Shown one piece after another: positions 6,546-45,178 of a DNA stretch of 64,000 nucleotides. Every line of letters begins with the position of its first letter. Within the stretch, counting starts at the first letter, position 1. Source of the DNA: an uncultured Clostridia bacterium (GTDB lineage Bacteria; Bacillota; Clostridia; Lachnospirales; CAG-274); contig CANQVZ010000005.1 in assembly GCA_947627425.1 (NCBI GenBank), positions 6,117-70,116 on the forward strand, read 5' to 3'. The notes beneath the pieces are model-generated. The model did no database searches and had not been told where the DNA came from. It worked only from the letters and a program-made list of their open reading frames with translations. The translations under genes were made by a program, and so were the position numbers.

Positions 6546-6549
6546 GGCT

Positions 6550-6750
6550 ATGATAAGAATAAACGGCGAAAACAAGCCCGAGGCGGAGGGCATGAGCGTG
6601 AGCGCATATATTGAGCTTGCGGGCTATCGCCCAGAAACCGTGGCAGTGGAGCTCAACGGCGAAATACTCAAGAAGGACAATTACAGCCGTGTTTTATGCG
6701 ACGGCGACAAAATGGAAATAGTTACGTTCATGGGCGGTGGATGTATATAA
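6550..6750 (+). CDS. thiS: Sulfur carrier protein ThiS
   Basis: 66 aa, from MIRINGENK to VTFMGGGCI. GGTGAGG RBS. The track ORF from 6433 is an upstream over-extension through the leader. Confidence 0.85.
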   Translation: MIRINGENKPEAEGMSVSAYIELAGYRPETVAVELNGEILKKDNYSRVLCDGDKMEIVTFMGGGCI

Positions 6751-7532: not shown

Positions 7533-7543
7533 GGTAATGAAAA

Positions 7544-9428: not shown

Positions 9429-11126
9429 TTAGCTTGCTTTTTCGTTCTTTTTCCTCTTTTTTCTGTTTTCCTTGCTTATAGTTACTATCTCCTTTGCAAC
9501 GGCGTAAGCCTCGTCCATTGTGTCAAAAAATCTCTCCTTGCCCATTCTCTTTTCACAGCCGAAGTTTTTGAGCACTTCTCTGGGCTGGGGCTGCAGCTCG
9601 GCATAGAGCACAAGTATATGGTGGTTCTTGGCGTAGTCTATCACAAATTTGAGGGAGTCGAGCAGCGTTCCGTCTATTATGGGCACATTTGTCATTCTGA
9701 GTATGAGCACATCGCTTTTTACATTCATTTTTTTCATTGTGTCCACAAAGCGTGTAGATGCGCCAAAGAACATAGGTCCTGCCAGCTCGTACACAAGTAT
9801 TTCGTTGTTTATATACTTGTAGGTGTCGTTTTCCTGAAGCTTTGATACGGTGTTTATATTGAAGCTTTCCGACATCTTCTTCATGAACAGGAACATAGCG
9901 AGCACCATACCCACCTCTATTGCGACCACGAGGTCAAATACCACAGTTAATACAAATGTGAGTATGAGTATTGCAAGGTCGCTTTTTGTAGTCCTTGCTA
10001 TCTCCGCAAATTCCTTGAATTCGCACATATTCCAGCTTACGACTATCAGTATGCCCGCAAGCGTGGGCATGGGTATGAGCTTTGCAAGAGGCAGGGCGAC
10101 AAGCATTATAATAAGCAGAGTTACGGCGTGTACCATACCCGCTATGGGAGTTCTTCCGCCGTTTCTTATGTTTGCCGCTGTTCTGGCTATCGCGCCCGTT
10201 GCGGGGAGACCGCCGAAGAGTGCAGAGCCTATGTTGGCTATACCCTGAGCAATAAGCTCCTGATTGGAATTGTGCTTGTCGCCCGTCATGCCGTCTGCCA
10301 CCACTGCGGAAAGCAGCGATTCTATTCCGGCGAGTATGGCAATAGTGAATGCGGGCTGTATGAGCGCCATTATATCCACTCCCGAAAGGTCGGGCAGATG
10401 AGGCACGGGTATATATGCCTTAAGGTCTGTAAACTTGGAGCCTATGGTATGTACGGAGGTTGCCATGCCGTTTTTCCGGAGTATGTACAGCGCGAGCGTA
10501 GTCGTCACAAGAGCTATGAGCGAGCCGGGTATTTTTTTGTTTATCTTGCCCCAAACAACGCTTATGACTATGCTTGCAATGCCTATTGCCGCAGCGGCGA
10601 TATTTATTTTGTCTATGTTTTGTATGTAGGCTATCCATTTGGGTATAAATTCGGAGCTTATACCCTCTATATCCATTCCCAGGAAGTCATTCAGCTGCGT
10701 TGAAAACAGCGTTACGGCGATACCCGTTGTGAAGCCCACCGTTATGGGGAAGGGTATGAATTTTATGACATCTCCCAGCTTCAATATGCCGAAGGCAACA
10801 AGGAATATGCCTGCCATAATTGTGGCTATTATAAGTCCGTCAATGCCGTATTGCTCTATTATGCCGCATATTATCACAACGAATGCCGCCGTAGGTCCGC
10901 CTATCTGTACACGGCTGCCGCCTAGGAAGGATATTATAAAGCCTGCGACTATTGCGGTTATAAGACCTATTTCGGGTCCCACTCCCGAGGATATGGCAAG
11001 AGCGATGGATAAGGGCAGGGCAACGATTGCCACTATAACGCCCGAAATTATGTCGTTTACAAGATTTTTCCCCTTGAGCTCCTGCGGGCTCTTTTTAATG
11101 ATCTCAAATAATTTTGGAATAAACAC
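9429..11126 (-). CDS. SulP family inorganic anion transporter with C-terminal STAS domain
   Basis: 565 aa. It is polytopic, with the SulP signature region GGLPATGAIARTAANIRNGGRTP and a STAS-like C-terminus. Confidence 0.88.
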   Translation of the reverse strand: MFIPKLFEIIKKSPQELKGKNLVNDIISGVIVAIVALPLSIALAISSGVGPEIGLITAIVAGFIISFLGGSRVQIGGPTAAFVVIICGIIEQYGIDGLIIATIMAGIFLVAFGILKLGDVIKFIPFPITVGFTTGIAVTLFSTQLNDFLGMDIEGISSEFIPKWIAYIQNIDKINIAAAAIGIASIVISVVWGKINKKIPGSLIALVTTTLALYILRKNGMATSVHTIGSKFTDLKAYIPVPHLPDLSGVDIMALIQPAFTIAILAGIESLLSAVVADGMTGDKHNSNQELIAQGIANIGSALFGGLPATGAIARTAANIRNGGRTPIAGMVHAVTLLIIMLVALPLAKLIPMPTLAGILIVVSWNMCEFKEFAEIARTTKSDLAILILTFVLTVVFDLVVAIEVGMVLAMFLFMKKMSESFNINTVSKLQENDTYKYINNEILVYELAGPMFFGASTRFVDTMKKMNVKSDVLILRMTNVPIIDGTLLDSLKFVIDYAKNHHILVLYAELQPQPREVLKNFGCEKRMGKERFFDTMDEAYAVAKEIVTISKENRKKRKKNEKAS

Positions 11127-26433: not shown

Positions 26434-26524
26434 AGTAAAAAAATTGAAAAATACTATTTCTATTTTAACAGAAATATGTTATATTTAAAAGTAGAATTTA
26501 ATATTTTTTTTAAGGAGTTTGCAT

Positions 26525-27946
26525 ATGGCTAAAACAATTGATGAAAAAAAGCTGGTAGAGCTTGTGGAATACAGATTAAAGGATGTGCTTCTGACACTTA
26601 TATATGATGTTGCGGACAATGCCGCGTTAAAATCGGAATATGTACTGCCAAAGTGCATATCGGAAATATACGACGACATAAGCAAAGCCTATATAAAGCT
26701 TGGAGATGTATTTGAAACAACGGAAAGGTCGGAGTTTGAGGCAGAGCTTAAGGACATAACGGACAAAATAGTAAAAAGCGCCGTCAATATAAACAGATAT
26801 ACATCCTCCAACGAGGCTCTGGGTCAGAAAGCGCTGCGTATGTATAAGCTTTCGGACATAGAGGAAATAGGAGACGAGGTGCCTCTCAACAACGGCAGAG
26901 TGGCAGAGCTGGTAAAGGGATATGTAAGCGGGCTTAAGGATGACTATGCCGACAACTTCAAGAAGGCGGAAATAATATCCTCTCTCCCGCTTAGAATGAC
27001 AAGAGATCGCTTTGCCGACTATGTAAGGCGCGGTGTAAAGCTGCTTGCAGACGGACTTCCCGAAGGCTTTGCGCAGTCGAGCATTTCGAGACTGAAGGAT
27101 ATATTTTATGCCGACTGTGAAAATGAATTCCAAAAGGACCTTCCTCTTATGTATGAAAAGCTCAAGTCCACGGAGGAGAGCCTTTCGGAGCTTGACAGCG
27201 AGGCGCTTACAGAAGCTATGGATGACATAGACGGCAATTTGAGCGCACTTGGCGAAATGTACAACATTCTTGAGTTTTATTACAGCCACGTTATAGATAT
27301 GAGTATACTTTCGCTCTTTGTTGTGGACTCGGATCTTATATTCGGCGACGATATGGTGCTCAAGGATCTTTACTTTGCGCTTAAGGAAATGCTTTCAACG
27401 GGCGATAAGAGCCTCAAGGATGATATTCTGGAAAGAACGGGCGATGAGATAAGCGACCGTTTTGACAAATTCAGACCGCAGGAGGAGAAAATGCTCAAGC
27501 TTATTAATTCTCTTAAGAGCGAGGAATATGAAGCGCTTGACGAAAACATAAAAACCACACTGAATGTCAGCAATACTATCAACAGTATGTATTCCGGCGA
27601 GCTAAACGAGCGAATTATGCTTGCGGGCGGTGAGGATGAGGACATTGACAAGGCTGTAGATGGTCTTATAGAATATATAAATAATGTCACGGAGAATATG
27701 CAAAACAGCGAAAAAAAGCTTATCAAGCAGATCTTTCTGGGACATATCCCCACGCCTATGTCAAATGAGGAGCTTTGCGAATATTGCGGTTATGCTCTTG
27801 ACGGTATAAACGACAAAAGCATAAGTCTTATGACCTACAGCGATATTTTCCATATCATTGATGATGAGGATGATGAGGATGACGAGCATGAGCATCATCA
27901 CCATCATCATGACCATGAGCATTGCGGCTGCGGGCATGAACATTAA
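26525..27946 (+). CDS. Hypothetical acidic helical protein with a His/Cys-rich C-terminal tail
   Basis: 473 aa. AAGGAG RBS 7 nt upstream of the ATG at 26525. The tail is DDEDDEDDEHEHHHHHHDHEHCGCGHEH. I recognise no family. Confidence 0.7.
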   Translation: MAKTIDEKKLVELVEYRLKDVLLTLIYDVADNAALKSEYVLPKCISEIYDDISKAYIKLGDVFETTERSEFEAELKDITDKIVKSAVNINRYTSSNEALGQKALRMYKLSDIEEIGDEVPLNNGRVAELVKGYVSGLKDDYADNFKKAEIISSLPLRMTRDRFADYVRRGVKLLADGLPEGFAQSSISRLKDIFYADCENEFQKDLPLMYEKLKSTEESLSELDSEALTEAMDDIDGNLSALGEMYNILEFYYSHVIDMSILSLFVVDSDLIFGDDMVLKDLYFALKEMLSTGDKSLKDDILERTGDEISDRFDKFRPQEEKMLKLINSLKSEEYEALDENIKTTLNVSNTINSMYSGELNERIMLAGGEDEDIDKAVDGLIEYINNVTENMQNSEKKLIKQIFLGHIPTPMSNEELCEYCGYALDGINDKSISLMTYSDIFHIIDDEDDEDDEHEHHHHHHDHEHCGCGHEH

Positions 27947-27957
27947 TATTGTTTAAA

Positions 27958-27997
27958 TAAAAAAATTCAGTACCCAATAAAGGATACTGAATTTTTT
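27958..27997. repeat. Left copy of the 40-bp direct repeat (terminator hairpin) bounding the islet
   Basis: TAAAAAAATTCAGTACCCAATAAAGGATACTGAATTTTTT is identical to 31545-31584. It forms the stem TTCAGTA...TACTGAA, flanked by an A-run and a T-run. Confidence 0.9.
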
Positions 27998-28142
27998 CAT
28001 GTTTAAGGCTGTTTAAGTTGCTATGTGTTTAATATATGTTGAAAATACATTAACTATTATACAGCTTTTATATTTGCAACATAAATACATGGTTTATTTA
28101 TATTTTGTTATTATCCAAATGAAAATTTTTAAAAGAATTAAA

Positions 28143-28171
28143 TTGACAAGTTTGTGGAAATATGATAGAAT
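28143..28171 (+). promoter_or_regulatory. Sigma-A type promoter of the HTH-ImmA gene
   Basis: TTGACA, a 17-nt spacer, then TAGAAT. Confidence 0.5.
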
Positions 28172-28235
28172 AAAGTTGTTACCAAATAGGTAAGAAAAAT
28201 AAAAAAATTGAGTTTCAAAGAAAGGGCTATGTGAT

Positions 28236-29324
28236 ATGAATGTTGCAATTGAAACCAAATATCCGGGAATGATTTTGCAGGAAGAACTTTTACATCAGTC
28301 AATGTCACAGAAAGAACTTGCACTTAGAACCGGAGTGACAGAAAAACACATAAGCACTGTGATAAATGGGTTAAAGAATATATCACCATCGTTTGCACGA
28401 AAATTAGACATTGCACTTGGGTCTAAAAAGGGATATTGGCAGGAAATACAAGCCCAATATGATCAGCAGCAAATTGAATATGAAGAAGAAAATGGAATAA
28501 CTCAAAATGAACTTGATATTTTAACACGATTAAAAGATATTATTGACTATTTTATACATAAGGGTATATTGTTTAATAATTGTGGCAAAGCTCAGAAAGT
28601 TATTCAACTTCGTAGCGTACTTCGTGTAAATAATCTAATGTCAATTGAAAAAATCAGCTATAATGCGTCTTATCGTGCTCAAATAAAAAAATGTACCAAT
28701 ATTGATCGATATGTATTGTTTGCATGGCAAAGGTTGTGTGAAATAAATACAGAAAATATTGATGTTAAAAATTCTTTTGACCGTGACAAATTGTGTCAAA
28801 GTATTGAGGATATTAAAAATGTGATGTTTATGCAAGACATTAATGATGGAATATGCCGTCTAAAAGAAATATTTTTGGAATGTGGTGTCGCTTTTGATGT
28901 TGTACGACATTTTCATGGAGCACCTGTTCAAGGATTTATTAAAGAAACGGATTGTGGAAAGATTATTTTATGTCTTACAATAAGAGGAAAAAAAGCAGAT
29001 AGATTTTGGTTTAGTTTGTTTCATGAAGTTGGGCATTTACTAAACGGAGATTATAATATACGCTTTGTGGATTTTAGTTCAGTTAAAAATGAGAATGAGG
29101 AAAAGGCAGACTTGTTTGCGAGAAATATTTTGATTTCCCCTGATAAGTATCGTTTATTTATTGAAAGTGGTAAATACACAAATTTACTTGCGATTAAGCA
29201 ATTTTCAGTGGATGTTCACATTCCATATTGGATAGTTATTGGAAGACTTCATAATGACGAATGGCTTGATTGGAGTACATTTAATGATGAGATACCAAGT
29301 TATAGTTGGGTAGATGAATTTTAA
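28236..29324 (+). CDS. Fusion protein: N-terminal HigA/XRE-type HTH plus C-terminal ImmA/IrrE (COG2856, M78) zinc metallopeptidase
   Basis: The HTH region is PGMILQEELLHQSMSQKELALRTGVTEKHISTVINGLKNISPSFARKLDIALG. The HExxH motif is FSLFHEVGHLLNGD. 362 aa. Confidence 0.85.
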   Translation: MNVAIETKYPGMILQEELLHQSMSQKELALRTGVTEKHISTVINGLKNISPSFARKLDIALGSKKGYWQEIQAQYDQQQIEYEEENGITQNELDILTRLKDIIDYFIHKGILFNNCGKAQKVIQLRSVLRVNNLMSIEKISYNASYRAQIKKCTNIDRYVLFAWQRLCEINTENIDVKNSFDRDKLCQSIEDIKNVMFMQDINDGICRLKEIFLECGVAFDVVRHFHGAPVQGFIKETDCGKIILCLTIRGKKADRFWFSLFHEVGHLLNGDYNIRFVDFSSVKNENEEKADLFARNILISPDKYRLFIESGKYTNLLAIKQFSVDVHIPYWIVIGRLHNDEWLDWSTFNDEIPSYSWVDEF

Positions 29325-29559
29325 TGTAAATGCAACAATATAGGAGGCGGTTAAATTGCCCTATTTAAAAATTGACACAGAGAAAACGCATTGAAAAGCT
29401 GTTGGCGCAGCAAAACAATGCGTTTAGGAAATTATGCTTGCGCATAAATATACTACAACATTAGTATGGCATAGTTTCTTCCCTGTTGTCAATAGACAAT
29501 TTAAACAAAAATATATTTATTAATTTGAATTACCTGCGGGGAAGAAAGGAGTTATACTG

Positions 29560-30315
29560 TTGAAAAAAAACAAAAATCTTGAAAAGCTATTGAATTTGAG
29601 TTATCTTAAATTTGCCAATAAGACTGTTTCTCGTGGTTGTATGGATATGCCAGCCATAAACTGTAATATTTCGGTTTTTCCGGATTATATTGCTTTGTAT
29701 GGGCAGAAAAATCTTTATCACAAGACAGTTCACACAGCAGTTGCGTTCTTTCAATACGATAGTGATTTTGATGGAAAGAATGGCTTGTATTGGGCAATAT
29801 ATTATGATGTAAAAGAACGTTTAAAATATTTTAAAGAACGTTTTAAGGGAGTAAAATATGTTATTATCCCTGATTTTTCAGAACTTGGCGACATTCATAA
29901 AATAGAGAATAATTATCGTCTGTTTAAAGGGCGTATTATTGGATTGTGGTTTATGTTTGAGATTGGTGCGGTTGTTATACCGAACATTACTTTTCCTACT
30001 GCAGAAAGCAAGGATTTTGCTCTCGATGGATATGAAGAATGCTCTGTAGCAGCAATCAGTACCAAAGGTCATATGGATGATTTTGCTGAAAATATGCGAT
30101 TACGTGAAAATATTCGTTTAACTGTTGATAAGTTACCAAACTTAAAGGCATTTATAGTATATGATGTGTGTGGGACAAATGATGCAACTTTTGATACATT
30201 TTCTTATGCCAGAGAAAAGAATATAGAGATAATTATACCGGATAACGCACTTAAAAGTCGCAATATAGCTTTACATGAAAAAAGATGTGAAGTTAAAAAG
30301 GCGGTGATAATATGA
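29560..30315 (+). CDS. Hypothetical protein, possibly DUF4417 family
   Basis: 251 aa. TTG start with a GAAAGGAG RBS. The segment from YVIIPDFSELGD to VVIPNITF resembles my recollection of DUF4417. The family call needs an HMM search. Confidence 0.6.
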   Translation: MKKNKNLEKLLNLSYLKFANKTVSRGCMDMPAINCNISVFPDYIALYGQKNLYHKTVHTAVAFFQYDSDFDGKNGLYWAIYYDVKERLKYFKERFKGVKYVIIPDFSELGDIHKIENNYRLFKGRIIGLWFMFEIGAVVIPNITFPTAESKDFALDGYEECSVAAISTKGHMDDFAENMRLRENIRLTVDKLPNLKAFIVYDVCGTNDATFDTFSYAREKNIEIIIPDNALKSRNIALHEKRCEVKKAVII

Positions 30316-30854
30316 ATCATGCAAATTCGGGACTTGCACATGGGACAAGTGGTTCTCCACAGCTTACTATAGAAAATGGTGAAATGGCAGTTAAAGCAAA
30401 GGAAAATGCAGATAGTGTATTAAAAACATATCCGGGCAATCGAACATACGAAGAATATGTGGATTTAGCAAGAGATCCATCGCACGGGAATAAAGTTCTT
30501 CCTCAGGGACGTAAAGAAAGAATGATTGGTTTAGATCTTGAACATCAAGGGAAACTACATAAAATTGTTCGTGACCCACAAAAGGATAAGGGAGCAGAAT
30601 TTATTGATGTTTATACAGGTATTAAATGGGACATAAAGAGCTTTGTTTCTCATCCTAATGGCTTGAATTCTGCTAAGGGTGCGTTTAGGTTGGATAGAGC
30701 TATTGCAAAAATAGAAAAGGAATTTGTCAATAATCACAATGTAATTATTGATACTCGAAGGCTTGTTAAATCTGATAGACAGGCACTTATGAAAGAAGTA
30801 AATGACAGAGGTTATTCAAATAAAATTATTTGGTATCATAAGAAGGGGGAATAA
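30312..30854 (+). CDS. Hypothetical small protein with a PD-(D/E)xK-like motif arrangement (putative nuclease/toxin)
   Basis: 180 aa. Its start overlaps the upstream stop as ATGA. The residues LDLEHQG, then AEFID, 9 residues, then WDIKS fit an E...D...(D/E)xK pattern. This is motif-level evidence only. Confidence 0.55.
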   Translation: MNHANSGLAHGTSGSPQLTIENGEMAVKAKENADSVLKTYPGNRTYEEYVDLARDPSHGNKVLPQGRKERMIGLDLEHQGKLHKIVRDPQKDKGAEFIDVYTGIKWDIKSFVSHPNGLNSAKGAFRLDRAIAKIEKEFVNNHNVIIDTRRLVKSDRQALMKEVNDRGYSNKIIWYHKKGE

Positions 30855-30857
30855 CGA

Positions 30858-31460
30858 GTGAACAATAATCTTGAAGATATTTTTAAAAGACATAAAATAT
30901 GGCTTGATTCAGAAAACGATGATGGCAGACAACTTGTTCTTGAGAATATTAATATGGAAATACTTACTGATGAACAGATGAAATTGTTATGCGAATCAGT
31001 TCTTATTGAATGTAATTTTACGAATTTGCATCTTAATAATAAAGATTTTTATCATATAGAAATGCATTCATGTACTTTTAATAACAATATATTTGAAGTA
31101 ATATATTTAATTAAAAGTGAGATAAATGATACGCGGTTTACAGATGTAACAATTAATAATTCAAACTTCAGTAATGCAGAATTTTTTGATTGTAATTTTT
31201 CAAACTGTGATATAAAAGATTCAACATTTATAAATGCGGGTGTTTGGAACCCTGTTTTTAGTGAATGTATTTTTGAAAATGTGGATTTTGATAATGCTTA
31301 CTTTGAAAATGTTAGAATATCAAAAACTAAATTTAAAAATCCAATCAACCTTAAAAAGGTAAAAAAACTTACCTTAAACATAGGAACAGATGAAACCCCA
31401 CAGTTATTGAATACAGAGAAGTCAATAGAATGGATTGAAACAAACTTAATATTAAAATAA
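30858..31460 (+). CDS. Pentapeptide repeat-containing protein
   Basis: 200 aa. GTG start 3 nt after the upstream stop, with an AGGGGG RBS. It has consecutive A(D/N)LxX-like pentads, for example CNFTNLHLNNKDFYH, NSNFSNAEFFDCNFSNCDIKDSTF and ENVDFDNAYFENVRI. Confidence 0.85.
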   Translation: MNNNLEDIFKRHKIWLDSENDDGRQLVLENINMEILTDEQMKLLCESVLIECNFTNLHLNNKDFYHIEMHSCTFNNNIFEVIYLIKSEINDTRFTDVTINNSNFSNAEFFDCNFSNCDIKDSTFINAGVWNPVFSECIFENVDFDNAYFENVRISKTKFKNPINLKKVKKLTLNIGTDETPQLLNTEKSIEWIETNLILK

Positions 31461-31544
31461 TGTAATTATTATCCTCAAAGAAGATTACCCACAGAAAAAA
31501 TAGAAAAGAGTGGTTGTATTTCAAATAAAATTTGTTCTTGTTGT

Positions 31545-31584
31545 TAAAAAAATTCAGTACCCAATAAAGGATACTGAATTTTTT
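31545..31584. repeat. Right copy of the 40-bp direct repeat (terminator hairpin) bounding the islet
   Basis: Identical to 27958-27997. It also serves as the terminator between the convergent pentapeptide-repeat and LRR genes. Confidence 0.9.
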
Positions 31585-31614: not shown

Positions 31615-33582
31615 TTATTTTACCTTATAGGTAGCTGTTCTTGTGCTGTCGTCCCATTCAATGGCAACCTCAAGCGCGCTGCCCAAAGCCCTGAACGGTA
31701 CGAACATTCTGTCGTTCACAATCTCGGCTTTAACGCCGTTTTCCATTTCTCTCGGGCTGTTGCCTACGAGCATTATATTACTTCCCGCAGTGAACTTTAT
31801 TACCTTGCTGCCCGTGGTTATTGTGGCTGTCTTTGTTGCCTGATCCCAGCTTACAGCCTTTGAATTGTCGGCGTCCTCAACATCTCCGCCCGCTATCGCA
31901 AGCGCCACAAATCTGAGAGGAACAAGAGTTGAATTGCTTGAAGCCTGAATATAAGCCGCCGAGTCGGTTTCATAGCTCTTGCTGCCTATTGTAATGGCTT
32001 TCTTGCCTATTGCTACCTTTACATCAGCTGAAAGCAGAGCCTCTGTTGTTGTCTCGGTCACGGCTTCTTTGAGCTTTGTTGTTGCTTCGGTGGCTGCCTC
32101 CGTTGTTGTTGTGGAAGTCTTTGCGTTTGATGAACGGCTGGGACCGCTTCCGCCGCCGCCGGAGGTCGTTCTCTTGTATGTAGTTGTCTCTGTGCCCGTT
32201 TCCTTTACAGCTGTAGTTGTTTCCGTGCTTGACTCCGCAACAGTAGTGGTCTGCGGCTTTGTAGTGGGCGCAGCTGTTGTCGGCTGAGTAGTAGGCTCCT
32301 TAGTAGTTGTCTGCGTGGTAGTCTGTGTAGTGGGAGCCTTAGTCGTAGTCTGAGTAGTCTGCGGCTTGGTAGTCGGCGCAGCCGTGGTTGGTGTGGCCGT
32401 AGTCGGCTGAGTAGTGGGCTCCTTAGTAGTTGACTGAGTAGTAGTCTGTGTAGTGGGAGCCTTTGTTGTAGCCTGAGTAGTCTGCGGCTTTGTAGTGGGC
32501 GCAGCTGTAGTCGGCTGAGTAGTAGGCTCCTTTGTAGTTGCTTGAGTAGTTGTCTGTGTCGTTGTAGTAGTCGTAGTTGTGGTGGTTGTCGTTGTAGTCG
32601 TAGTGGTTGTGGTAGTTGTAGTCGTAGCGGGATTCATGTATTCGATTTTGAATCCGTTAGCTATAGCGAAGTCCTCTGCCGCTGACGGCTGCCATACCTT
32701 GAATACGAGCTTTTCTTTGTTACAATTAAGAAATGCGTTTGTATTTATTGACAATACAGAATCGGGTATGGTTATGCTTTCAAGACCATCGCAGCTTGAA
32801 AATGCGCGATCGCCTATAGATATTACGGAATCGGGTATAACAATATCCTTAAGACCATCGCATCCTGAAAAAGCAGATGCTCCTATTGTGATTATTGTGT
32901 CGGGTATCTCCACATCCGTAAGCATTGTACATCCACTAAATGTGCTGTCGGCTATTGTGAGATAATTCTCATTCTTTGGAAGCTTTATGCTGCTGAGCAC
33001 GCTGCAGCTCAAAAATGCACCGCTGCCTATTGCCGCAATGCTGTCCGGGAGATTTATGGAAGCAAGCGACTTACAGCTTTTGAAAGCATCAGAACCGATC
33101 GATGTGATGCCTTCGGGAAGTGTTACCTTTGCAAGTACACTACAGTCTGAGAAAGCACTTCTGTCAAGACTTAAAAGTCCTTCGGAAAAAGTTACGCTTG
33201 CAAGACTATCGCAATTGTAAAAGGCAAGTGAATGAACACTTTTTACGGTAACGCCCTCTATTTCCGAGGGTATGTTTGCAACAACAATGTTTGAATCCGC
33301 ATCCGTTATCTCGCCCGTTGCGGTATCAAATGTAATGCTTCCGCCTGTCACCTGATACTGAACCTTTGTGCTTGCTGCGGCAAGCTCCGTAACATTGTCG
33401 CTCATTACATCGGCTTCGGCGGTCACTTCATTCGCGTCCGCTTCAATTTCCGCCTCGGGAGCGTAAACATCGCTGTCATCGGCAGACACTGCGTTTAAGC
33501 TTGCTCCTATAACGGCGAATGCCAGAGCAAGACTTATCAGTTTTTTAAACTTCATTTTCTTTTCCTCCTTGTTAGTATTCAA
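31615..33582 (-). CDS. Cell-surface protein: signal peptide, BspA-type leucine-rich repeats, Thr-rich linker, and a C-terminal copper amine oxidase N-terminal-like domain
   Basis: LRR_5-like repeats such as IPSEIEGVTVKSVHSLAFYNCDSLASVTF and LPEGITSIGSDAFKSCKSLASINLP. A poly-Thr/TTKEPTTQ linker. The C-terminal segment runs from LVPLRFVALAIAGG to RMFVPFRALGSAL. Confidence 0.85.
   Translation of the reverse strand: MNTNKEEKKMKFKKLISLALAFAVIGASLNAVSADDSDVYAPEAEIEADANEVTAEADVMSDNVTELAAASTKVQYQVTGGSITFDTATGEITDADSNIVVANIPSEIEGVTVKSVHSLAFYNCDSLASVTFSEGLLSLDRSAFSDCSVLAKVTLPEGITSIGSDAFKSCKSLASINLPDSIAAIGSGAFLSCSVLSSIKLPKNENYLTIADSTFSGCTMLTDVEIPDTIITIGASAFSGCDGLKDIVIPDSVISIGDRAFSSCDGLESITIPDSVLSINTNAFLNCNKEKLVFKVWQPSAAEDFAIANGFKIEYMNPATTTTTTTTTTTTTTTTTTTTTTTQTTTQATTKEPTTQPTTAAPTTKPQTTQATTKAPTTQTTTQSTTKEPTTQPTTATPTTAAPTTKPQTTQTTTKAPTTQTTTQTTTKEPTTQPTTAAPTTKPQTTTVAESSTETTTAVKETGTETTTYKRTTSGGGGSGPSRSSNAKTSTTTTEAATEATTKLKEAVTETTTEALLSADVKVAIGKKAITIGSKSYETDSAAYIQASSNSTLVPLRFVALAIAGGDVEDADNSKAVSWDQATKTATITTGSKVIKFTAGSNIMLVGNSPREMENGVKAEIVNDRMFVPFRALGSALEVAIEWDDSTRTATYKVK
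32245..32625 (-). repeat. In-frame tandem repeats encoding the poly-Thr and TTKEPTTQPTTAAPTTKPQ linker
   Basis: A run of about 22 Thr codons is followed by roughly three copies of a ~36-aa (~108-nt) Thr/Pro/Gln unit. Confidence 0.8.
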
Positions 33583-40667: not shown

Positions 40668-41123
40668 ATGCTGACCGAGGAAATGCTGTGTAATGGAACA
40701 CTATTAGGCATTTGCAGCAAGTTAAAAGAGGCAAATTTAACAGATGATGTGGTAGTATGTCTTGGCAGTGCTGCCGGTTTGATGTGTTTGTCCAATCAAT
40801 TTACTACACGCAAAGTCTATGTGTATACAGATTTAGATGAAGCACAGTTGCCGCCGCAAGTGGAAAAGGTCAATGTAGATTATCATAACAAGGATACTGT
40901 AAAAGTGCGAGGGTTCACCTGTACCTCTGCAACCCAAACAATTCTGGATTTACTGGAGTTCACCGAGGATATTGGCAATCAGGATTTGTATGAGTCTTTG
41001 TGGATGTATTACACAACACATGGCGACTCCTTTGCCGAGCTTGTAAGCTTGCTGAACAGTAGGCAGAAAGCTACATTTCAGATTTACGAGGAGGATGCTA
41101 TACATTATAAGGATGAGAGGTGA
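40668..41123 (+). CDS. Hypothetical protein, putative AbiEi-like antitoxin partner
   Basis: 151 aa. Its stop overlaps the start of the AbiEii-like gene by 4 nt. The call rests on gene context only. Confidence 0.4.
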   Translation: MLTEEMLCNGTLLGICSKLKEANLTDDVVVCLGSAAGLMCLSNQFTTRKVYVYTDLDEAQLPPQVEKVNVDYHNKDTVKVRGFTCTSATQTILDLLEFTEDIGNQDLYESLWMYYTTHGDSFAELVSLLNSRQKATFQIYEEDAIHYKDER

Positions 41124-41884
41124 TCAGCTTGAACAATTCCTATGATAACCCCATTGCATTACTTAATTTGATGAAACAGTTAATGTGTACATTAGCCTAT
41201 AGTGGTACACCTTTAGTATTTAAGGGAGAGAATTTGCTTCTAAATGTTCTAGATGGTAAAAATATGGATAAAAGCCTATTTCGCTTAACTCAAGATATAG
41301 ATGCTAACTGGACACAGGGAAATCCAAGTGTCTCCTTTATTGTATCTGAGTTAAGTAAAGCTTTGCATCTAGTGGATCCAAGTTTGCAAGTTGTCCCTTT
41401 GAAGGCTCATATAGATAATGGTATGATAACTTTTGTTGTAATGCAGGGTGCCGGTGGTTTATTCAGCATAGATATACTTATAGCAAATCCGGTATTTTAC
41501 TGTGAATATACAATAGATGGACAAGCGGTAAAGGGTGCAACACTTGAAAAAATGCTTGCTGACAAGATTAAAGTTCTCTCAACAGATATAATATATCGTA
41601 GAGGCAAAGACCTGTTTGACATATATGCGCTGTCACATATTAAGGGGTATACAACTCTGAATATACTAAAAGTAATGTCTGTATGCAGTTATGTTTTGGG
41701 AAATTTTGACTGCTTTTCCAACATCAAAAAATTAGAAAGAGCCTATGAACAAGTAAGTACATTGGGAGAACGCCCGCCGTTTGTCCATGTATGTCAAAGG
41801 GTACAGAAATTTGTATATCCTTTTATGTTTAGAACAAAATCGAACTACATGTGGAATGGAAATTCTTGGGTTGATTATCAGTAA
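41120..41884 (+). CDS. Nucleotidyltransferase AbiEii/AbiGii (DUF1814) toxin family protein
   Basis: 254 aa. The N-terminal sequence from LVFKGENLLLNVL through FRLTQDIDANW resembles the FKGGTAL and S-DID motifs of DUF1814. Confidence 0.55.
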   Translation: MISLNNSYDNPIALLNLMKQLMCTLAYSGTPLVFKGENLLLNVLDGKNMDKSLFRLTQDIDANWTQGNPSVSFIVSELSKALHLVDPSLQVVPLKAHIDNGMITFVVMQGAGGLFSIDILIANPVFYCEYTIDGQAVKGATLEKMLADKIKVLSTDIIYRRGKDLFDIYALSHIKGYTTLNILKVMSVCSYVLGNFDCFSNIKKLERAYEQVSTLGERPPFVHVCQRVQKFVYPFMFRTKSNYMWNGNSWVDYQ

Positions 41885-41932: not shown

Positions 41933-43243
41933 TTAAAATCTCCACTGGCAGTTATAAGCTGTTGCTTGCCATCTTTGAGCAGTTGCATTCCACTTGTAGG
42001 TACACCAACCACCTAGACCAAATGATTGAAGTTCACCATCGGTTTTACCAGGTGTGGTAGGCTTGTAAGCTTCCTGTATCTTGTCCCATTCATCACTCCA
42101 GTGTCCCTCACCTGTTTCTGGGTTGACACGATATGTTGCACCAAGTCCACCAAACACACCTGTTGAAGTGCAGTTAGTTTCATCAAAAACACTGCCTTCT
42201 TTTATTGTGCTGTTGATTCTTGGAAGTCTACGACCAAGTTCAGTTGCTACAGGCTGTCCTTCACCAAGAACTCCACCTGTTCCAACCTTAAGCACGGTAC
42301 TCTTGCCATTGGCATCTACAAATGTATCACCTGGTACAGCTTCTCGTCTGTCAGCATCTGACTGGTTAAGTGTGCCTACCTGAACTCCTGCATAGGGGTC
42401 TTTCTTTTCAATTTTTATGACTTTACTTGTGTCACGCTTGCTAGGATTGCTTAAAGCATATATGAGAACCGCACTATCTTCTCTTGTGAGGTTCATTTGA
42501 GGATTGAAGTTACTGTTCTGGTCGCCATGACCTATACCTAAAATGTAAAGTTTGGCAATAGAAGCTCTGTTTGACATGTCTTCATTCCAGTCACCAATCA
42601 TAGCCTCAAGGTCATAATCATTTTGAATACTGCCCTCAACTTTTTCACCTTTGAGCTTTTCTATGCAGTCAACCATTATGTCGGCTGCTTCCTCTCTGAG
42701 AATTGGTTGCGTCCACTTGTTGCCATTACCACTGTCTTTAAAGGCCGTACCTATGCCAAGATAAGAGCTTCCAATTATTAAGTCCTTGCCCCAAAGTCCA
42801 TTAAGATTATCAACAGCTACAGAATCATCATAAAATGATATTCCCTCCGGTTCAGGAACTTTAGACTTTTTAATTGCTTCGTTTATCTTGATTAAACCTG
42901 GGTCGCAGGCGTTTACGCACATTGATAGGAACTCTTGTCGCGTTATGGTACCCTGTGGTCTGAAGGTGTTGTCTTCGGGGTAGCCCTTTATTGAACCGAT
43001 GTTTACCAGGCTCTCAACGGATTCCCTCGAATAGTCCCTTATCTTGGCATCATCCCGGAACTGTGTGGCAGCTTCTACCTCTTCATGGAAAAGTTCGCCT
43101 ACAGGAGAGTTTACACTTCCTAATGCCAAACTGATGCCTAAGCAAATTGCTAAGTTCTTTAATACAAGCTTATTCATTACCTTTTTTATCGGTCTTTCCT
43201 TCCGGCGAATGCCGGGCTGATTCTGTTTCATACAAATCACCAT
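41933..43243 (-). CDS. S-layer homology (SLH) domain surface protein with an uncharacterised C-terminal domain
   Basis: Signal peptide MNKLVLKNLAICLGISLALGS. SLH-like segments FRDDAKIRDYSRESVESLVNIGSIKGYPEDNTFRPQGTITRQEFLSM and NFNPQMNLTREDSAVLIYAL. Confidence 0.7.
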   Translation of the reverse strand: MVICMKQNQPGIRRKERPIKKVMNKLVLKNLAICLGISLALGSVNSPVGELFHEEVEAATQFRDDAKIRDYSRESVESLVNIGSIKGYPEDNTFRPQGTITRQEFLSMCVNACDPGLIKINEAIKKSKVPEPEGISFYDDSVAVDNLNGLWGKDLIIGSSYLGIGTAFKDSGNGNKWTQPILREEAADIMVDCIEKLKGEKVEGSIQNDYDLEAMIGDWNEDMSNRASIAKLYILGIGHGDQNSNFNPQMNLTREDSAVLIYALSNPSKRDTSKVIKIEKKDPYAGVQVGTLNQSDADRREAVPGDTFVDANGKSTVLKVGTGGVLGEGQPVATELGRRLPRINSTIKEGSVFDETNCTSTGVFGGLGATYRVNPETGEGHWSDEWDKIQEAYKPTTPGKTDGELQSFGLGGWCTYKWNATAQRWQATAYNCQWRF

Positions 43244-43492
43244 TCCTTTCTTATATTTTATGTCTTGAAAGTTGACCTAAAAAATTTGTTTCTACTGACA
43301 ATATCTTATATGCCTGTACAATATAACAAGTTCATTGAATTTAGTATAACATATTTTTCAAAATTTTCAATAGTACAATGAGCTAAGACAACTCTTATTG
43401 ATTTGTACATAAGCTGCTCTATGCGCTTTGTAAACCCCGTTTCTTTTAAATGCCCGCCTCATAGAATTAAAAAAATATTTTATAATAGTTAT

Positions 43493-43705
43493 TTAGTCGT
43501 CATTCTCTCTGTATACAATATCAACCAAAGAAATCATTGCTCTTGTGAGTATTATTTCTGTTTCAATACGCATATATGTTACAATATGTTCCACATCGCG
43601 CCTTTCAAAAACATCTATCTTGCCGTTTTGGTAAACCTCTTCCGCAATTTCCTCTATTAAATAGGGAAGTTCTTTTTTTATGATATTATTGAGTTTATTT
43701 GACAT
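43493..43705 (-). CDS. Hypothetical small protein (70 aa)
   Basis: ORF with a GGAGGA RBS upstream. I recognise no family. Confidence 0.4.
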   Translation of the reverse strand: MSNKLNNIIKKELPYLIEEIAEEVYQNGKIDVFERRDVEHIVTYMRIETEIILTRAMISLVDIVYRENDD

Positions 43706-43998
43706 ATTATCCTCCGTTTGTCCCTCCTGCGCGAAATAAATATATCAATATTATGACAAAATATAAATACTAAAAAAGAAAATTTTTGAATAAAAATGCA
43801 ATTTTTTTGAATTTTTAAGTGTAAAATTTAATTTTATACACTAAAACGCTCTGTTTGCTTTATTATATAAACCGTCATTTGCTTTTTGCACGCCACCCCT
43901 TCACCGTGCAACATCACAAAAGGGCGTTGCAAAATCTTCATAGTATGTTATAATAATATATAATGAAAATATAGCTTAATATAGGGAGAAGATACAGT

Positions 43999-44172
43999 AT
44001 GTCATCAAACAATTATAATAGCAACATTAAGAATCTGAAAGGTTCCTTAGCTGTTGAGGGAATATATTTAACAGATGAGGCTATGCTCAATCTGGAGCGT
44101 CTTGCAAGTGGTAATGCTTCATGTTCACAGCTCGTTGAAGAAATAAAGCAAAAATATATTCAAGAGGTGTGA
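43999..44172 (+). CDS. VbhA-type antitoxin of a Fic toxin
   Basis: Below the ORF-track cutoff. Manual translation gives MSSNNYNSNIKNLKGSLAVEGIYLTDEAMLNLERLASGNASCSQLVEEIKQKYIQEV. SLAVEG matches the inhibitory motif (S/T)xxxE(G/N). GGGAGA RBS. The stop lies 5 nt before the fic start. Confidence 0.75.
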   Translation: MSSNNYNSNIKNLKGSLAVEGIYLTDEAMLNLERLASGNASCSQLVEEIKQKYIQEV

Positions 44173-44177
44173 TATAA

Positions 44178-44774
44178 ATGTTTTCAAGATATGAAGTTTA
44201 CACAACTGTTCAGTCGTTATATTGTTATCCCGACACAGATGTACTCATAAACAAGCTCAACATAAGAGATGCAAAATTACTAAAAAAGGCAGAGGCTGAG
44301 ATAACTGCAATAAAACAACTTGAACTTTTGCAAAATCCTATTGCCGGAAACTTAACAAAGACACACTTGTTTAATATTCATAAATTTATATTTGAGGACA
44401 TTTATCCGTTTGCCGGAAAAATAAGGCGGGAAAAAATAAGTAAAGCCGATACAATGTTCTACCCTCCGGATTTGATAAATAGCGAACTTAATAAATTATT
44501 TGGACTAATCAAACAGAAAAATATGCTGAATGAGAAAAATGTAAATAGAATTTTTGATAATTCTGCTTATGTTATGGCAGAGCTTAATATAATACATCCG
44601 TTCAGAGAGGGAAATGGCAGAGCAATTCGTGAGTTTATACGTTTGATGCTTAAAAGAACAGGTTATGATTTAAACTGGGGCAATGCTGATAAGACAGAAA
44701 TATTAGAGGCGTCTATTGCCTCTGTTTATAATTATAAAGTATTGGCAGATGTGTTAAAAAAGTGTATACAGTAA
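44178..44774 (+). CDS. fic: Fic family protein (class I Fic toxin, AMP-transferase type)
   Basis: Fic motif HPFREGNGRAIR. 198 aa. Confidence 0.88.
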   Translation: MFSRYEVYTTVQSLYCYPDTDVLINKLNIRDAKLLKKAEAEITAIKQLELLQNPIAGNLTKTHLFNIHKFIFEDIYPFAGKIRREKISKADTMFYPPDLINSELNKLFGLIKQKNMLNEKNVNRIFDNSAYVMAELNIIHPFREGNGRAIREFIRLMLKRTGYDLNWGNADKTEILEASIASVYNYKVLADVLKKCIQ

Positions 44775-44837
44775 AATTTATAATGAAAAAAATATAGCCA
44801 TACCGACAATTAAGCGAACAGAAACAAAAATAATAAT

Positions 44838-44968
44838 CAGAGAAGGAAGGCAGTGTTTTTGGTGAAACTAACTGTACTTCAACAGGTGTGTTTGGTGGAC
44901 TTGGCGTGACCTACCGTGTCAATCCCGACACAGGTGAGGTTCACCGGAGCAATGAATGGGATAAAATA
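44838..44968 (+). pseudogene. Fragment homologous to the 3' part of the SLH protein gene (41933-43243), in inverted orientation
   Basis: It encodes EGSVFGETNCTSTGVFGGLGVTYRVNPDTGEVHRSNEWDKI, compared with EGSVFDETNCTSTGVFGGLGATYRVNPETGEGHWSDEWDKI in the intact gene. There is no start codon, and stops lie immediately upstream. Confidence 0.75.
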
Positions 44969-44984
44969 ACTATATGCTCTGCAC

Positions 44985-45012
44985 AAAAAAAAGAAGCACT
45001 TTACTGTGCTTC
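44985..45012 (-). terminator. Intrinsic terminator downstream of tRNA-Ser
   Basis: On the minus strand: GAAGCAC-agtaaa-GTGCTTC followed by TTTTTTTT. Confidence 0.75.
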
Positions 45013-45021
45013 GATAAAGAG

Positions 45022-45109
45022 CGGAGTAGGAGAGATTTGAACTCTCGCGCCGCGCAAACGACCTACTCCCTTAGCAGGGGAGCCCCTTCAGCCACTTGGG
45101 TACTACTCC
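45022..45109 (-). tRNA. tRNA-Ser (anticodon GCU), class II with a long variable arm; CCA not encoded
   Basis: Manual cloverleaf. Acceptor stem GGAGTAG/CTACTCC. Anticodon stem-loop CTCCC-CTGCTAA-GGGAG. T arm GAGAG-TTCAAAT-CTCTC. Confidence 0.85.
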
Positions 45110-45178
45110 ATACCAAACCGCTGTGATTTACAACGCTTAATAAGTATAGCATATAAAGAATAAACTGTCAAGACTTTT

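Follow-up and report, generated by a model that had tools for sequence, protein, structure and literature searches.

A predicted toxin–immunity islet without a recombinase lies between two direct copies of a native terminator in a Clostridia genome

Here we show that a 3.5-kb, low-GC islet in the genome of an uncultured Clostridia bacterium is a discrete insertion at an intergenic terminator, that the perfect 40-bp repeat bounding it is of native origin, and that the islet has no recognisable recombinase, no terminal inverted repeats and no att core shared with its relatives. We put at about 0.5 the probability that it is a recent foreign operon, captured non-site-specifically at the native terminator with a long target duplication.

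A duplicated terminator bounds the islet

The islet lies in a 64-kb stretch of DNA (the window). The features of the site are as follows; L002 and L117 are two related species discussed below.

26519–27946, plus strand: core gene on the left flank, encoding an acidic 475-aa protein with a His-rich tail; in L002 and L117 its orthologues are followed by a single hairpin
27958–27997, no strand assigned: left repeat copy, a bidirectional terminator hairpin made of A7, stem TTCAGTA, loop, stem TACTGAA and T6
27998–31544, plus strand: inserted islet body, 3547 bp, 30.8% GC; L002 and L117 have no such insert at the orthologous site
31545–31584, no strand assigned: right repeat copy, followed by the native right flank TGATGTTCTTTTAT
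31615–33582, minus strand: right flanking gene for a 655-aa surface protein with BspA-type LRR, a Thr-rich linker and Cu_amine_oxidN1; convergent with the 475-aa gene

The repeat, TAAAAAAATTCAGTACCCAATAAAGGATACTGAATTTTTT, occurs exactly twice, as direct copies on the plus strand that are identical at 40/40 positions. Both positions had been given in an earlier note on this DNA and were confirmed by an exact search and by one allowing ≤3 mismatches, which found no third copy within the 64-kb window; shuffled sequences gave an expectation of 0 matches. The 40-mer folds as an A-run/stem-loop/T-run hairpin, both as RNA (−16.2 kcal/mol, z = −5.0) and as DNA (−10.5 kcal/mol, z = −5.7). The repeat has a sharp edge, ending ≤1 nt from the base of the palindrome, and in the 60 nt on either side the two copies showed no similarity beyond chance (p = 0.8 and 0.9). 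The left copy is now the predicted terminator of the 475-aa gene (whose start lies at 26519 or 26525), and the right copy would serve both the islet operon on the plus strand and the LRR-type gene on the minus strand.

The hairpin was absent from 135 of the 139 loci compared, the remaining four have only the orthologous site, and it was not found in viral, genome and metagenome collections. The earlier proposal that the 40-mer might mark other cassettes, like membership of a dispersed REP/MITE-type family with many copies across a genome, was followed in the 64-kb window and in relatives: the former has just the two copies and the latter only the orthologous site.

Inside the islet the GC content is 30.8%, against 45.0% in the rest of the window, as the description of a low-GC islet had it. 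No inverted repeats were detected at its ends (terminal-inverted-repeat test, p = 0.5). In agreement with the earlier note, none of the four islet proteins is similar to a recombinase or transposase (Pfam, PADLOC, NCBIfam and phrog profiles, and the model of ORF2), and a further 10 ORFs of the window likewise include no recombinase-like protein.

Sister species carry the empty site

The empty site is present in L002 (87% nucleotide identity) and in the more distant L117. Both have one hairpin and no islet within the gene order AlaX–MiaB–475-aa gene, convergent with an LRR-type gene as in the window. The check proposed earlier, a search of related genomes for a single hairpin, therefore succeeded in two species, and in both the two convergent genes share one terminator, as had been predicted for the site without the islet. 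The hairpin stem AAAAAAATTCAGTAT(C)C..GGATACTGAATTTTTTT is common to the window, L002 and L117, the left-copy stem being orthologous to their single hairpin, and the right flank is also the same: TGATGTTCTTTTAT matches the empty site of L002. At this fast-evolving intergenic site the loop differs in each sister species. The two window copies share one lineage-specific stem mismatch (GTACCC, against GTATCC in L002 and GTATC in L117) and their loops match, which indicates that they derive from one native sequence.

One hairpin with this stem in each sister species marks the window repeat as a duplicated native terminator rather than an att site brought in from outside. The earlier note's reading of a discrete insertion into an intergenic terminator is thereby upheld. 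Between the two forms that the note had offered for the repeat, attL/attR-like ends or a very long target duplication, the native hairpin and the lineage-specific changes shared by both copies favour the latter.

The islet carries a predicted regulated toxin–immunity module

The islet had been described as carrying only a four-gene module. Its four ORFs, all in the same orientation, are indeed present; in addition, the minus strand between ORF1 and ORF2 carries a small-RNA candidate.

28143–28171, plus strand: ORF1 promoter, TTGACA, 17 nt, TAGAAT, with an extended TG; 11 of 12 consensus positions
28179–28193, no strand assigned: operator-like palindrome TTACCAAATAGGTAA, between the promoter and ORF1
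28236–29324, plus strand: ORF1, 362 aa, HigA/XRE-type HTH fused to an M78 (ImmA/IrrE) HExxH peptidase domain
29379–29492, minus strand: candidate small RNA gene, ~78 nt, antisense-oriented between ORF1 and ORF2
29560–30315, plus strand: ORF2, 251 aa, DUF4417; the stop codon overlaps the start of ORF3
30312–30854, plus strand: ORF3, 180 aa, small polymorphic toxin with a conserved 35-aa N-terminal leader and a C-terminal toxin domain
30858–31460, plus strand: ORF4, 200 aa, pentapeptide-repeat protein (Pfam Pentapeptide_4, 2e-15)

ORF1 matches HTH_3 (6e-8) and Peptidase_M78 (1e-5) in Pfam, HigA in NCBIfam, and PD-Lambda-2_B (1.3e-22), RmrA and capP in PADLOC; in relatives its counterpart is two genes, one for the HTH and one for the M78 part. 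It is predicted to be a signal-responsive repressor of the module. The −10 element of its promoter is conserved in two related islets (L090 and L122), and the TTACC..GGTAA part of the palindrome is unchanged across three diverged islets, making it a candidate binding site for the ORF1 HTH domain. The small-RNA candidate has conserved −35 (TTGACA) and −10 elements, would fold into two hairpins and has an intrinsic terminator GCGCATTG..CAATGCGTTTTCTCT; six diverged islets keep both promoter and structure, 6 of the 24 pairs show compensatory changes, and no Rfam family matched it.

ORF2 matches DUF4417 (Pfam, 1.6e-13) as well as phrog_8680 and phrog_940, and has >200 homologues; in phages DUF4417 is often fused to ParB-like nuclease or CTPase domains. 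Its AF2 model is an alpha/beta barrel-like fold (pLDDT 86.9) that matches TIM barrels weakly and shows no similarity to transposase or integrase folds. No fold was assignable to ORF3. Its toxin domain has nine invariant residues (E69, R70, E77, D88, D99, D107, K109, E137 and D147), and the D..DxK motif suggests a nuclease. The leader also precedes Ntox50, AHH, Tox-GHH and other C-termini and begins about 35 toxin clusters (clustered at 50% identity), and the ORF3 C-terminal domain in turn ends an LXG-type protein and other proteins of 375–400 aa. Among the loci that reach past an ORF3-type toxin domain, the great majority have an ORF4 homologue next, whatever the toxin N-terminus, and the LXG-type locus L106 is one of them. 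ORF4 is therefore predicted to be the cognate immunity protein and is possibly a DNA mimic.

The module has the hallmarks of a polymorphic toxin system: one conserved N-terminal region precedes different C-terminal toxin domains, the toxin domain is found on other delivery scaffolds as well, and a predicted immunity gene lies downstream. Like LXG/T7SS, CDI, Rhs and MafB systems, it combines a conserved N-terminal part with swappable C-terminal domains (Ntox50, AHH, Tox-GHH and ORF3 type) and places the immunity gene directly downstream; one related locus (L118) also holds an orphan toxin/immunity cassette that keeps leader-coding homology. Unlike them, it has an N-terminal part of only ~35 residues on toxins of only ~160–200 aa, neither a signal peptide nor linked secretion genes were found for the toxin, and the toxins are always translationally coupled to a DUF4417 protein under an HTH/M78 switch. 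ORF1 has the same two domains, with the HExxH motif, as ImmR/ImmA of ICEBs1, CapH/CapP of CBASS and PD-lambda-2B (PMC9519451), and matches the PD-Lambda-2_B profile across nearly its full length. The module was nevertheless rejected as a PD-lambda-2 defence system (HigB-like A, HTH-peptidase B and P4-antitoxin-like C), since only B matches: HigB-like and P4-antitoxin-like partners are missing, a different set of genes is controlled, PADLOC gave no matches for ORF2–4, and no ORF lies upstream of ORF1. The module may have an addiction or abortive-infection role, as suggested by the context of one related islet (L130), which lies among Schlafen-like ATPase, RlaP and YafQ/ParE genes.

Related islets occur at unrelated sites

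Some relatives of the module ride serine-recombinase elements; others are 'naked' islets, chromosomal and lacking a recombinase, at unrelated sites (L090, L099, L118, L122, L096/L102 and L130). The same compact recombinase-less module at so many unrelated sites makes the earlier suggestion of a decayed element unlikely. GC content was 5–13 points below the flanks in six of the seven naked relatives scored, the exception being L099 (4 points).

Long flanking direct repeats of unrelated sequence are present at three of the seven independent naked islets: the window (40/40), L130 (70/73 bp) and L122 (26/27 bp). In 1.29 Mb of control sequence there was only one other repeat pair of such kind. The L130 repeat includes the terminator that comes after the neighbouring RlaP gene. 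A hairpin-targeting mechanism, also raised in the earlier note, does not hold generally, because the 27-bp flanking repeat of one related islet does not fold. Nor is a flanking repeat universal: L090, L099 and L118 have none, and L096/L102 have an inverted 74-bp hairpin repeat in place of a direct one. Some such repeats may pre-exist independently of insertion, as a third, diverged copy of the L130 hairpin lies close to that islet and a 115-bp repeat surrounds housekeeping genes in L020. No shared end motifs, terminal inverted repeats or subterminal structures were found among the islets.

Comparison with known mobile elements

The cis-mobilisable elements (CIMEs) of streptococcal ICEs and trans-mobilised islands are likewise discrete accessory DNA with perfect direct target repeats and no internal recombination genes, and the islet, with its 40/40 repeats at both ends, could in principle excise through them in the same way. 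In CIMEs, by contrast, the repeat is a conserved att core that a cognate integrase-bearing element also carries, and it usually lies where a conserved gene has its 3′ end. The islet repeat is an intergenic terminator peculiar to its lineage, the repeats of related islets are of other sequence, and no cognate element came to light. An att core common to related elements was not recovered, the L130 and L122 repeats being unrelated and the viral, genome and metagenome collections lacking the hairpin.

The pdif (XerC/XerD) modules of Acinetobacter plasmids and IMEX are also small, often toxin–antitoxin, lacking their own recombinase and bounded by short palindromes. The islet resembles them as a small recombinase-less gene module with palindromic bounds. 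The Xer site of pdif modules is a conserved 28-bp sequence that usually comes in inverted pairs; in the islet family the boundary sequences vary from locus to locus and consist of local DNA duplicated in direct orientation. Insertion beside a palindrome that duplicates a 14–48-bp unit recalls CRISPR repeat duplication by Cas1–Cas2 and casposons, and Cas1–Cas2 prefers cruciform-adjacent AT-rich sites. The islet differs in being a 3.5-kb insert with no Cas1 and no inverted ends, and a fixed molecular ruler would not give repeats of 27, 40 and 73 bp. An integron cassette was rejected: no GTTRRRY core (of the R''/R' pair RYYYAAC..GTTRRRY of attC) lies in or beside the 40-mer, the islet is a single unit with its own promoter rather than an array, and no integrase (IntI) was found within the 64 kb, where ten other ORFs were checked.

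IS1549 and IS1634 produce long variable target duplications of 8–514 bp by no accepted mechanism (PMC2266710). The islet family likewise shows long flanking repeats of variable length (27, 40 and 73 bp), and the 40-bp duplication of native sequence in the window is far above the usual 2–14 bp and inside the IS1634/IS1549 range. These are, however, DDE-transposase elements with terminal inverted repeats, and the islet has neither (no transposase domains; inverted repeats, p = 0.5).

Origin of the islet

In the capture reading that we favour, the incoming operon would be a regulated DUF4417, polymorphic toxin and immunity module, and it would have been captured where two convergent core genes shared their native bidirectional terminator. 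The event would have duplicated 40 bp of target DNA across the terminator palindrome, either by a staggered break that was filled in and joined to the incoming DNA or by a replication template switch at the hairpin. Such break-repair or template-switch chemistry is putative, and it counts against the reading that, to our knowledge, the chemistry for 27–73-nt staggers is not established in bacteria outside IS1634/IS1549. The duplication would have given each of the three transcription units its own terminator, and the toxin–immunity pair would make loss costly, both favouring retention. Later spread may have proceeded by homologous recombination in the flanking core genes.

Also against capture, Campbell-type integration through an att core would also leave 40 bp of identity. 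The repeats would then be attL and attR, left when a circle with one 40-bp copy integrated site-specifically or by short homology (RecA/RecT type), with the recombinase supplied in trans as for CIMEs or Xer-dependent modules; precise excision through the repeats would be possible. Perfect 40-bp direct repeats around DNA with no recombinase inside are as expected, phage single-strand-annealing recombinases need only 35–50 bp of homology, and close relatives of the module ride large-serine-recombinase elements, so that helpers exist in the same gene pool. We nevertheless regard this origin as doubtful. The hairpin is native to a fast-evolving site whose loop differs in each sister species, and an incoming element would therefore have needed this lineage's exact 40-mer. 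No other hairpin copy was found in the window or in the viral, genome and metagenome collections, and of 139 loci four have the orthologous site and the rest none. Repeats flanking related islets are unlike the 40-mer and unlike each other, and serine recombinases do not leave a long repeat. Integration of this kind accounts for spread within the species, but not for the first insertion.

It is improbable, on present evidence, that the module family is a mobile element of a new kind, autonomous or helper-dependent and of no known recombinase class, making variable 27–73-bp target duplications, often across intrinsic terminators. DUF4417, the HTH–M78 protein or a dedicated helper would cut the target with a long variable stagger and join the element to it, DUF4417 being the candidate catalytic or targeting component as a conserved enzyme-like barrel often fused to ParB-like nuclease/CTPase domains in phages. 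Recurrence of the compact module at many unrelated sites without a known recombinase, long flanking repeats at 3/7 of them and the IS1549 and IS1634 precedent (8–514 bp; PMC2266710) agree with this, but conserved ends, terminal inverted repeats and subterminal structures were not found, the DUF4417 model is unlike any transposase or integrase fold, and the module is plainly cargo on serine-recombinase elements. No near-identical copies were seen at different sites, so recent transposition is not demonstrated. We give still less weight to a terminator that was already tandem, or part of a local hairpin family, before the islet landed between the copies or the whole interval was exchanged by homology: related genomes do have repeated intergenic hairpins (three copies in L130, an inverted pair in L096, 115-bp repeats in L020), yet both sister species have a single hairpin at the site, the window has no other copy, and the two copies are identical although the site evolves quickly. 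Joining of low-GC foreign DNA to the chromosome through a shared 40-mer during assembly or binning is very improbable. The source is probably a metagenome-assembled genome and GC jumps abruptly at the repeat, but two independent assemblies from other samples, L081 and L082 (ENA ERZ27248999 and ERZ27249013), are 100% identical to the window over 4565 and 3870 bp and read across both repeat copies into both unique flanks, which argues against a one-off artefact; moreover, typical reads and the final k-mer both exceed the 40 bp of the repeat in length.

Discussion

Small defence, toxin–antitoxin and toxin–immunity islets often lie between core genes without an integrase, and their arrival is usually credited vaguely to recombination. 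The site described here gives an unusually clean before-and-after view, with one native terminator in two sister species and the terminator duplicated around a foreign operon in the window. The cargo has an undescribed architecture that is widespread in gut and rumen Clostridia, in which DUF4417 is combined with swappable toxins that share a 35-residue leader, with cognate immunity and with control by an ImmR/ImmA-like switch and a candidate antisense RNA, and it gives DUF4417 its first functional context. Long flanking duplications of unrelated sequence in some, though not all, related islets of other gut Clostridia hint at an undescribed route of DNA insertion. Candidate processes are the repair of breaks at palindromes, a template switch and the action of an unknown enzyme. 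If a defined process lies behind the duplications, it would offer a testable route of recombinase-free gene capture.

A duplicated terminator hairpin brackets a low-GC islet

The 40-mer TAAAAAAATTCAGTACCCAATAAAGGATACTGAATTTTTT occurs exactly twice in the window, in identical copies, as the earlier note had claimed, and on the same strand; with up to three mismatches allowed no third copy is present in the window, and none is expected by chance. Each copy folds into the terminator-type hairpin that had been proposed, with an A-run, a stem-loop and a T-run (RNA, −16.2 kcal/mol, z = −5.0; DNA, −10.5 kcal/mol, z = −5.7), and the duplicated 40 bp covers the terminator palindrome, give or take 1 nt. 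Beyond the repeat, the 60 nt to each side of one copy resemble those of the other no more than shuffled sequence would, so that the idea of an extended or decayed repeat of >40 bp was dropped, and a search for terminal inverted repeats at the two islet ends returned none. Main features of the locus:

26519/26525–27946, plus strand: gene for a 475-aa protein (left flank)
27958–27997: left copy of the 40-mer
28143–28171: strong promoter ahead of ORF1
28179–28193: palindrome TTACCAAATAGGTAA ahead of ORF1
28236–29324: ORF1, regulator
29379–29492, minus strand: candidate small RNA (~78 nt) in the ORF1–ORF2 spacer, with promoter and intrinsic terminator
29560–30315: ORF2, DUF4417 protein
30312–30854: ORF3, predicted toxin, overlapping the ORF2 stop
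30858–31460: ORF4, pentapeptide-repeat protein
31545–31584: right copy of the 40-mer
31615–33582, minus strand: LRR-type gene (right flank)

The 3547-bp interior is indeed AT-rich (30.8% GC versus 45.0% in the remainder of the window) and contains four co-oriented ORFs, on which the flanking genes converge. The description of its content as a four-gene module only was right for the ORFs but left out the candidate small RNA on the minus strand. No recombinase was found in the islet, in agreement with the earlier note, or in ten other ORFs of the window. Two assemblies from different rabbit-gut samples (ENA ERZ27248999 and ERZ27249013) match the window at 100% identity through the two repeats and on into the unique sequence at each side, which shows that the structure is no accident of assembly, and we regard an artefact as exceedingly improbable. 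The junction expected at an empty site is ...GAACATTAATATTGTTTAAA + 40-mer + TGATGTTCTTTTATTTAG, and that expected in an excised circle is ...AAATTTGTTCTTGTTGT + 40-mer + CATGTTTAAGGCTG.

The C-terminal tail of the 475-aa protein (DDEDDEDDEHEHHHHHHDHEHCGCGHEH; 27860–27946) is acidic and rich in His. Rfam returned nothing real on the islet, a sub-threshold Thr_leader match being a spurious combination of the His-codon tail and the terminator.

Empty sites in sister species

A scan for the neighbouring MiaB-like gene retrieved relatives among rabbit-gut metagenome-assembled Clostridia. In one of them (L002), with a left flank 87% identical to the window at the nucleotide level, the alignment breaks off at the stop codon of the 475-aa gene and picks up again in the LRR-type gene, with a single hairpin between the two. 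A homologue of the 475-aa protein led to a more distant species (L117), which has the gene order of the window (AlaX, MiaB, 478 aa, convergent 611-aa gene, HTH, DAG kinase) and likewise a single hairpin at the site. The stem AAAAAAATTCAGTA..TACTGAATTTTTT(T) is common to all three lineages, as is the right flank G(A/G)(T/A)GTTCTTTT; the loop reads CCCAATAAAGG in the window, TTTTAGC in L002 and TATGAC in L117. The stem pattern is present once each in L002 and L117 and twice each in the window and the two identical assemblies, and is absent from all 135 other loci. The hairpin is therefore a native, conserved bidirectional terminator and the islet a lineage-specific insertion, so that the discrete insertion at an intergenic terminator put forward in the earlier note is borne out by two genomes with the same neighbours, one hairpin between the convergent genes and no islet. 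These empty sites were verified for the window islet only.

Both copies in the window carry the same derived stem mismatch, GTACCC (GTATCC in L002, GTATC in L117), and the same loop, and therefore both come from one native sequence. Judged by these sequences, the copies point to duplication of the target, not to an att core imported by the element.

L001, at 90% nucleotide identity the closest relative, was set aside as an empty site because its contig ends 140 bp past the stop codon; what follows the 475-aa orthologue there (L001 1–140) is unrelated, GC-rich sequence with hairpins. Exact-protein look-ups with four flanking proteins for strain variants gave no match, the hairpin 26-mer had 0 matches in metagenome, genome and viral collections, and a homologue search with the 475-aa flank protein found no conspecific variant, the nearest proteins being 77%, 75% and 67% identical.

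The module carried by the islet

ORF1 is a fusion of a HigA/XRE-type HTH to an M78 (ImmA/IrrE) HExxH peptidase domain, matched over nearly its whole length by the PD-Lambda-2_B profile; PD-lambda-2B has been described as just such an Xre–peptidase fusion (PMC9519451). Membership of PD-lambda-2 was ruled out, as the HigB-like and P4-antitoxin-like partners are missing. In the ORF1 region, diverged relatives have kept the −10 element, both arms of the palindrome and the RBS. The minus strand of the ORF1–ORF2 spacer encodes a candidate antisense small RNA, laid out as a conserved −35/−10 promoter, two hairpins and an intrinsic terminator; six diverged islets retain the arrangement, 6 of 24 pairs showing compensatory changes, and no match to an Rfam family was obtained. 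The plus strand ahead of ORF2 has a conserved anti-RBS/RBS pairing, CTTCCC..GGGAAG.

The confidently modelled ORF2 protein (pLDDT 86.9) has an alpha/beta barrel-like fold with only weak TIM-barrel matches, and we tentatively describe DUF4417 as TIM-barrel-like; solved structures gave no sequence match, and a fold search with the model gave no significant PDB match. D67, D71, D105, E116, K169 and D202 are invariant in DUF4417. ORF3, for which no family assignment was obtained, begins with a leader of ~35 residues, MNHANSGLAHGTSGSPQLT.ENGEMA.KAKENE, that recurs at the N-terminus of many small proteins (~35 leader-initiated clusters at 50% identity) with unrelated C-terminal toxin domains (Ntox50, AHH, Tox-GHH and others). 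Its own C-terminal domain (residues 38–180) also ends an LXG-type protein and other proteins of 375–400 aa. Invariant residues of ORF3 include D99 and D107-x-K109, which tentatively suggest a PD-(D/E)xK-type nuclease, a suggestion only, since nothing in the PDB came significantly close to the model (pLDDT 80.6). The great majority of loci that reach past the ORF3-type toxin domain have a homologue of ORF4 after it, whatever the N-terminus of the toxin; such a placement is characteristic of cognate immunity proteins, the role predicted for ORF4.

The immunity protein is ~50% identical to its relatives, and the adjacent toxin and DUF4417 proteins 75–80%; the lower value would fit faster or diversifying evolution. 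The leader also weakly matches (29–44% identity, up to 13 stretches) the interior of 500–3300-aa proteins (P0221, P0226, P0227 and similar), and may have a relative among the repeat units of giant surface or toxin proteins. In one related islet (L118) the leader-coding segment occurs three times (6012–6098, 7459–7545 and 8897–8983) and precedes orphan toxin/immunity cassettes, in the manner of classical polymorphic toxin loci; the later copies head a Tox-GHH toxin with small downstream ORFs, and a remnant. Such a layout would be suited to toxin switching through recombination.

Distribution of the module and its flanking repeats

Relatives at 70–80% protein identity occur in two settings. In rumen metagenomes (L083–L088, L097, L098) the module lies inside elements with genes for a large serine recombinase, SSB and type I restriction. 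Elsewhere (L090, L099, L118, L122, L096/L101/L102, L130–L139) it forms naked islets among ordinary chromosomal genes with no recombinase, for example between azlC and a GH31 gene in L090 and between divergent asp23 and rpmB in L122. Six of the seven naked relatives scored are 5–13 points lower in GC than their surroundings, and L099 only 4 lower. Searches with the islet DNA found no match in plasmids or phages, and those with the DUF4417 protein none in plasmids; in phages and viral contigs the latter has distant matches only (26–35% identity).

Each naked islet was searched for repeats joining its left and right borders, and as a control 1.29 Mb (the window and 80 unrelated loci) was scanned for exact direct repeats ≥20 bp long and 2.5–6 kb apart. 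Repeats found outside the window:

L130, 4472–4544 and 7676–7748: direct, 73 bp, 70/73 identical
L122, 3637–3663 and 8583–8609: direct, 27 bp, one mismatch, does not fold
L096 (also L101, L102), 6494–6572 and 10178–10254: inverted pair, 74–80 bp, 86–88% identical
L020 (control), 4279–4394 and 6874–6989: exact direct, 115 bp, rich in GC hairpins

The L130 repeat comprises an intrinsic-terminator hairpin (z = −4.8) and 26 nt of 3′ tail, with its right copy just downstream of the RlaP gene and the module between the Schlafen-like ATPase and RlaP genes. The pair is kept in nine other strain contigs (L131–L139) except L136, where a deletion has removed the left copy and the start of the neighbouring gene. 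In L096 and L102 each arm of the inverted pair contains a terminator hairpin, and a 36-bp direct repeat (89% identity) is also present. L096, a human-gut relative, has a truncated DUF4417 gene and tandem-like CCGCAC-rich repeats nearby. No flanking repeats were found at L090, L099 or L118, or at the recombinase-borne copies.

The control yielded only two pairs, the window 40-mer and the one in L020, so that long direct repeats at three (the window, L130 and L122) of the seven independent islets, on which the family-level pattern rests, are far above background. The repeats of different islets are unrelated in sequence, and across islets there are no conserved element ends or end motif, the promoter, operator and RBS alone being conserved.

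A third, diverged copy of the L130 hairpin lies at 3027–3071. The L020 pair, in another rabbit-gut Clostridia MAG, encloses four genes of housekeeping type, which encode two TauE-like half-transporters, a YbaK-type deacylase and endonuclease III. As these two cases show, some hairpin repeats are independent of the module, and the L020 pair means that hairpin-bearing repeats can also flank non-mobile genes.

Origin of the islet

The best-supported reading, to which we give a probability of about 0.5, is non-site-specific capture of the islet with duplication of its target. Identical repeat copies and an unameliorated GC content mark the insertion as discrete and recent. Capture could have begun with opposite-strand nicks around the hairpin, the gaps being filled in and the ends joined to incoming DNA; alternatively, replication could have switched templates at the hairpin, passing into donor DNA and then returning upstream. 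The duplication would supply one terminator each for the 475-aa gene, the islet operon and the LRR-type gene, and a toxin–immunity pair would penalise loss of the islet; both could favour retention. Hairpin targeting, raised in the earlier note, agrees with the window repeat but not with that of L122, which does not fold. Resolution of a cruciform at the palindrome base also fits the window within 1 nt; it was rejected as a general mechanism because the L130 repeat continues for 26 nt beyond its hairpin, and that of L122 has no hairpin.

The earlier note had left the choice between attL/attR-like ends and a very long target duplication. The shared derived mismatch and loop favour duplication, and no att core is common to the module family. 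An att or Campbell cycle, driven by a trans-acting recombinase or by short-homology recombination, accounts for the perfect 40-bp repeat and for possible excision, but it explains neither why a foreign element should carry the private terminator of this lineage nor why related islets have unrelated repeats, and we consider it unlikely. Compact, recombinase-less islets with long repeats do recur, which suggests a new integration activity, self-encoded or helper-dependent; the sole precedent for such duplications, IS1549 and IS1634 with duplications of 8–514 bp by an unknown mechanism (PMC2266710), however has a DDE transposase and inverted repeats, both absent here, which leaves this explanation rather doubtful. 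That tandem hairpins were already present before the insertion seems less probable still. Overall, we see a modest chance that the mechanism of mobility is new.

Other loci in the window

A second low-GC patch (43000–45110, 32–34%) adjoins tRNA-Ser(GCT) at 45021–45109 and contains a 198-aa Fic/DOC protein (44178–44774) with an HPFxxGNGR motif; no integrase was seen nearby. At 40668–41884 two overlapping genes encode proteins of 151 and 254 aa, and the pair may be an AbiE-like toxin–antitoxin, since the second protein weakly matches the AbiEii nucleotidyltransferase toxin (E = 6e-4).

Relation to known systems

The islet resembles CIME and pdif modules as an integrase-less, repeat-bounded cassette, but lacks their defining feature, a conserved recombination site shared across elements; with IS1634-type elements it would have only the long, variable duplication in common. 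DUF4417 appears in the literature only as a phage-enriched domain, often with ParB-CTPase fold fusions. The DUF4417 papers searched do not link it to toxins, and no description of the DUF4417/leader–toxin/switch architecture was found in the literature searched. PADLOC models did not match ORF2–4. In L130 the module neighbours Schlafen-like ATPase, RlaP and YafQ/ParE genes, a setting that points to conflict or defence.

All functional assignments here are computational. Given the shared leader, the swappable toxins and the downstream immunity gene, we read the module as a regulated polymorphic toxin–immunity system, in which a short leader is predicted to couple exchangeable toxins to DUF4417. 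At the sequence level the cargo satisfies the criteria for such systems, from which it differs in its unusually short leader, the obligatory coupling of the toxin to DUF4417, and the ImmR/ImmA-type switch with a candidate antisense RNA. Abortive infection, addiction and antagonism between cells are all candidate roles.
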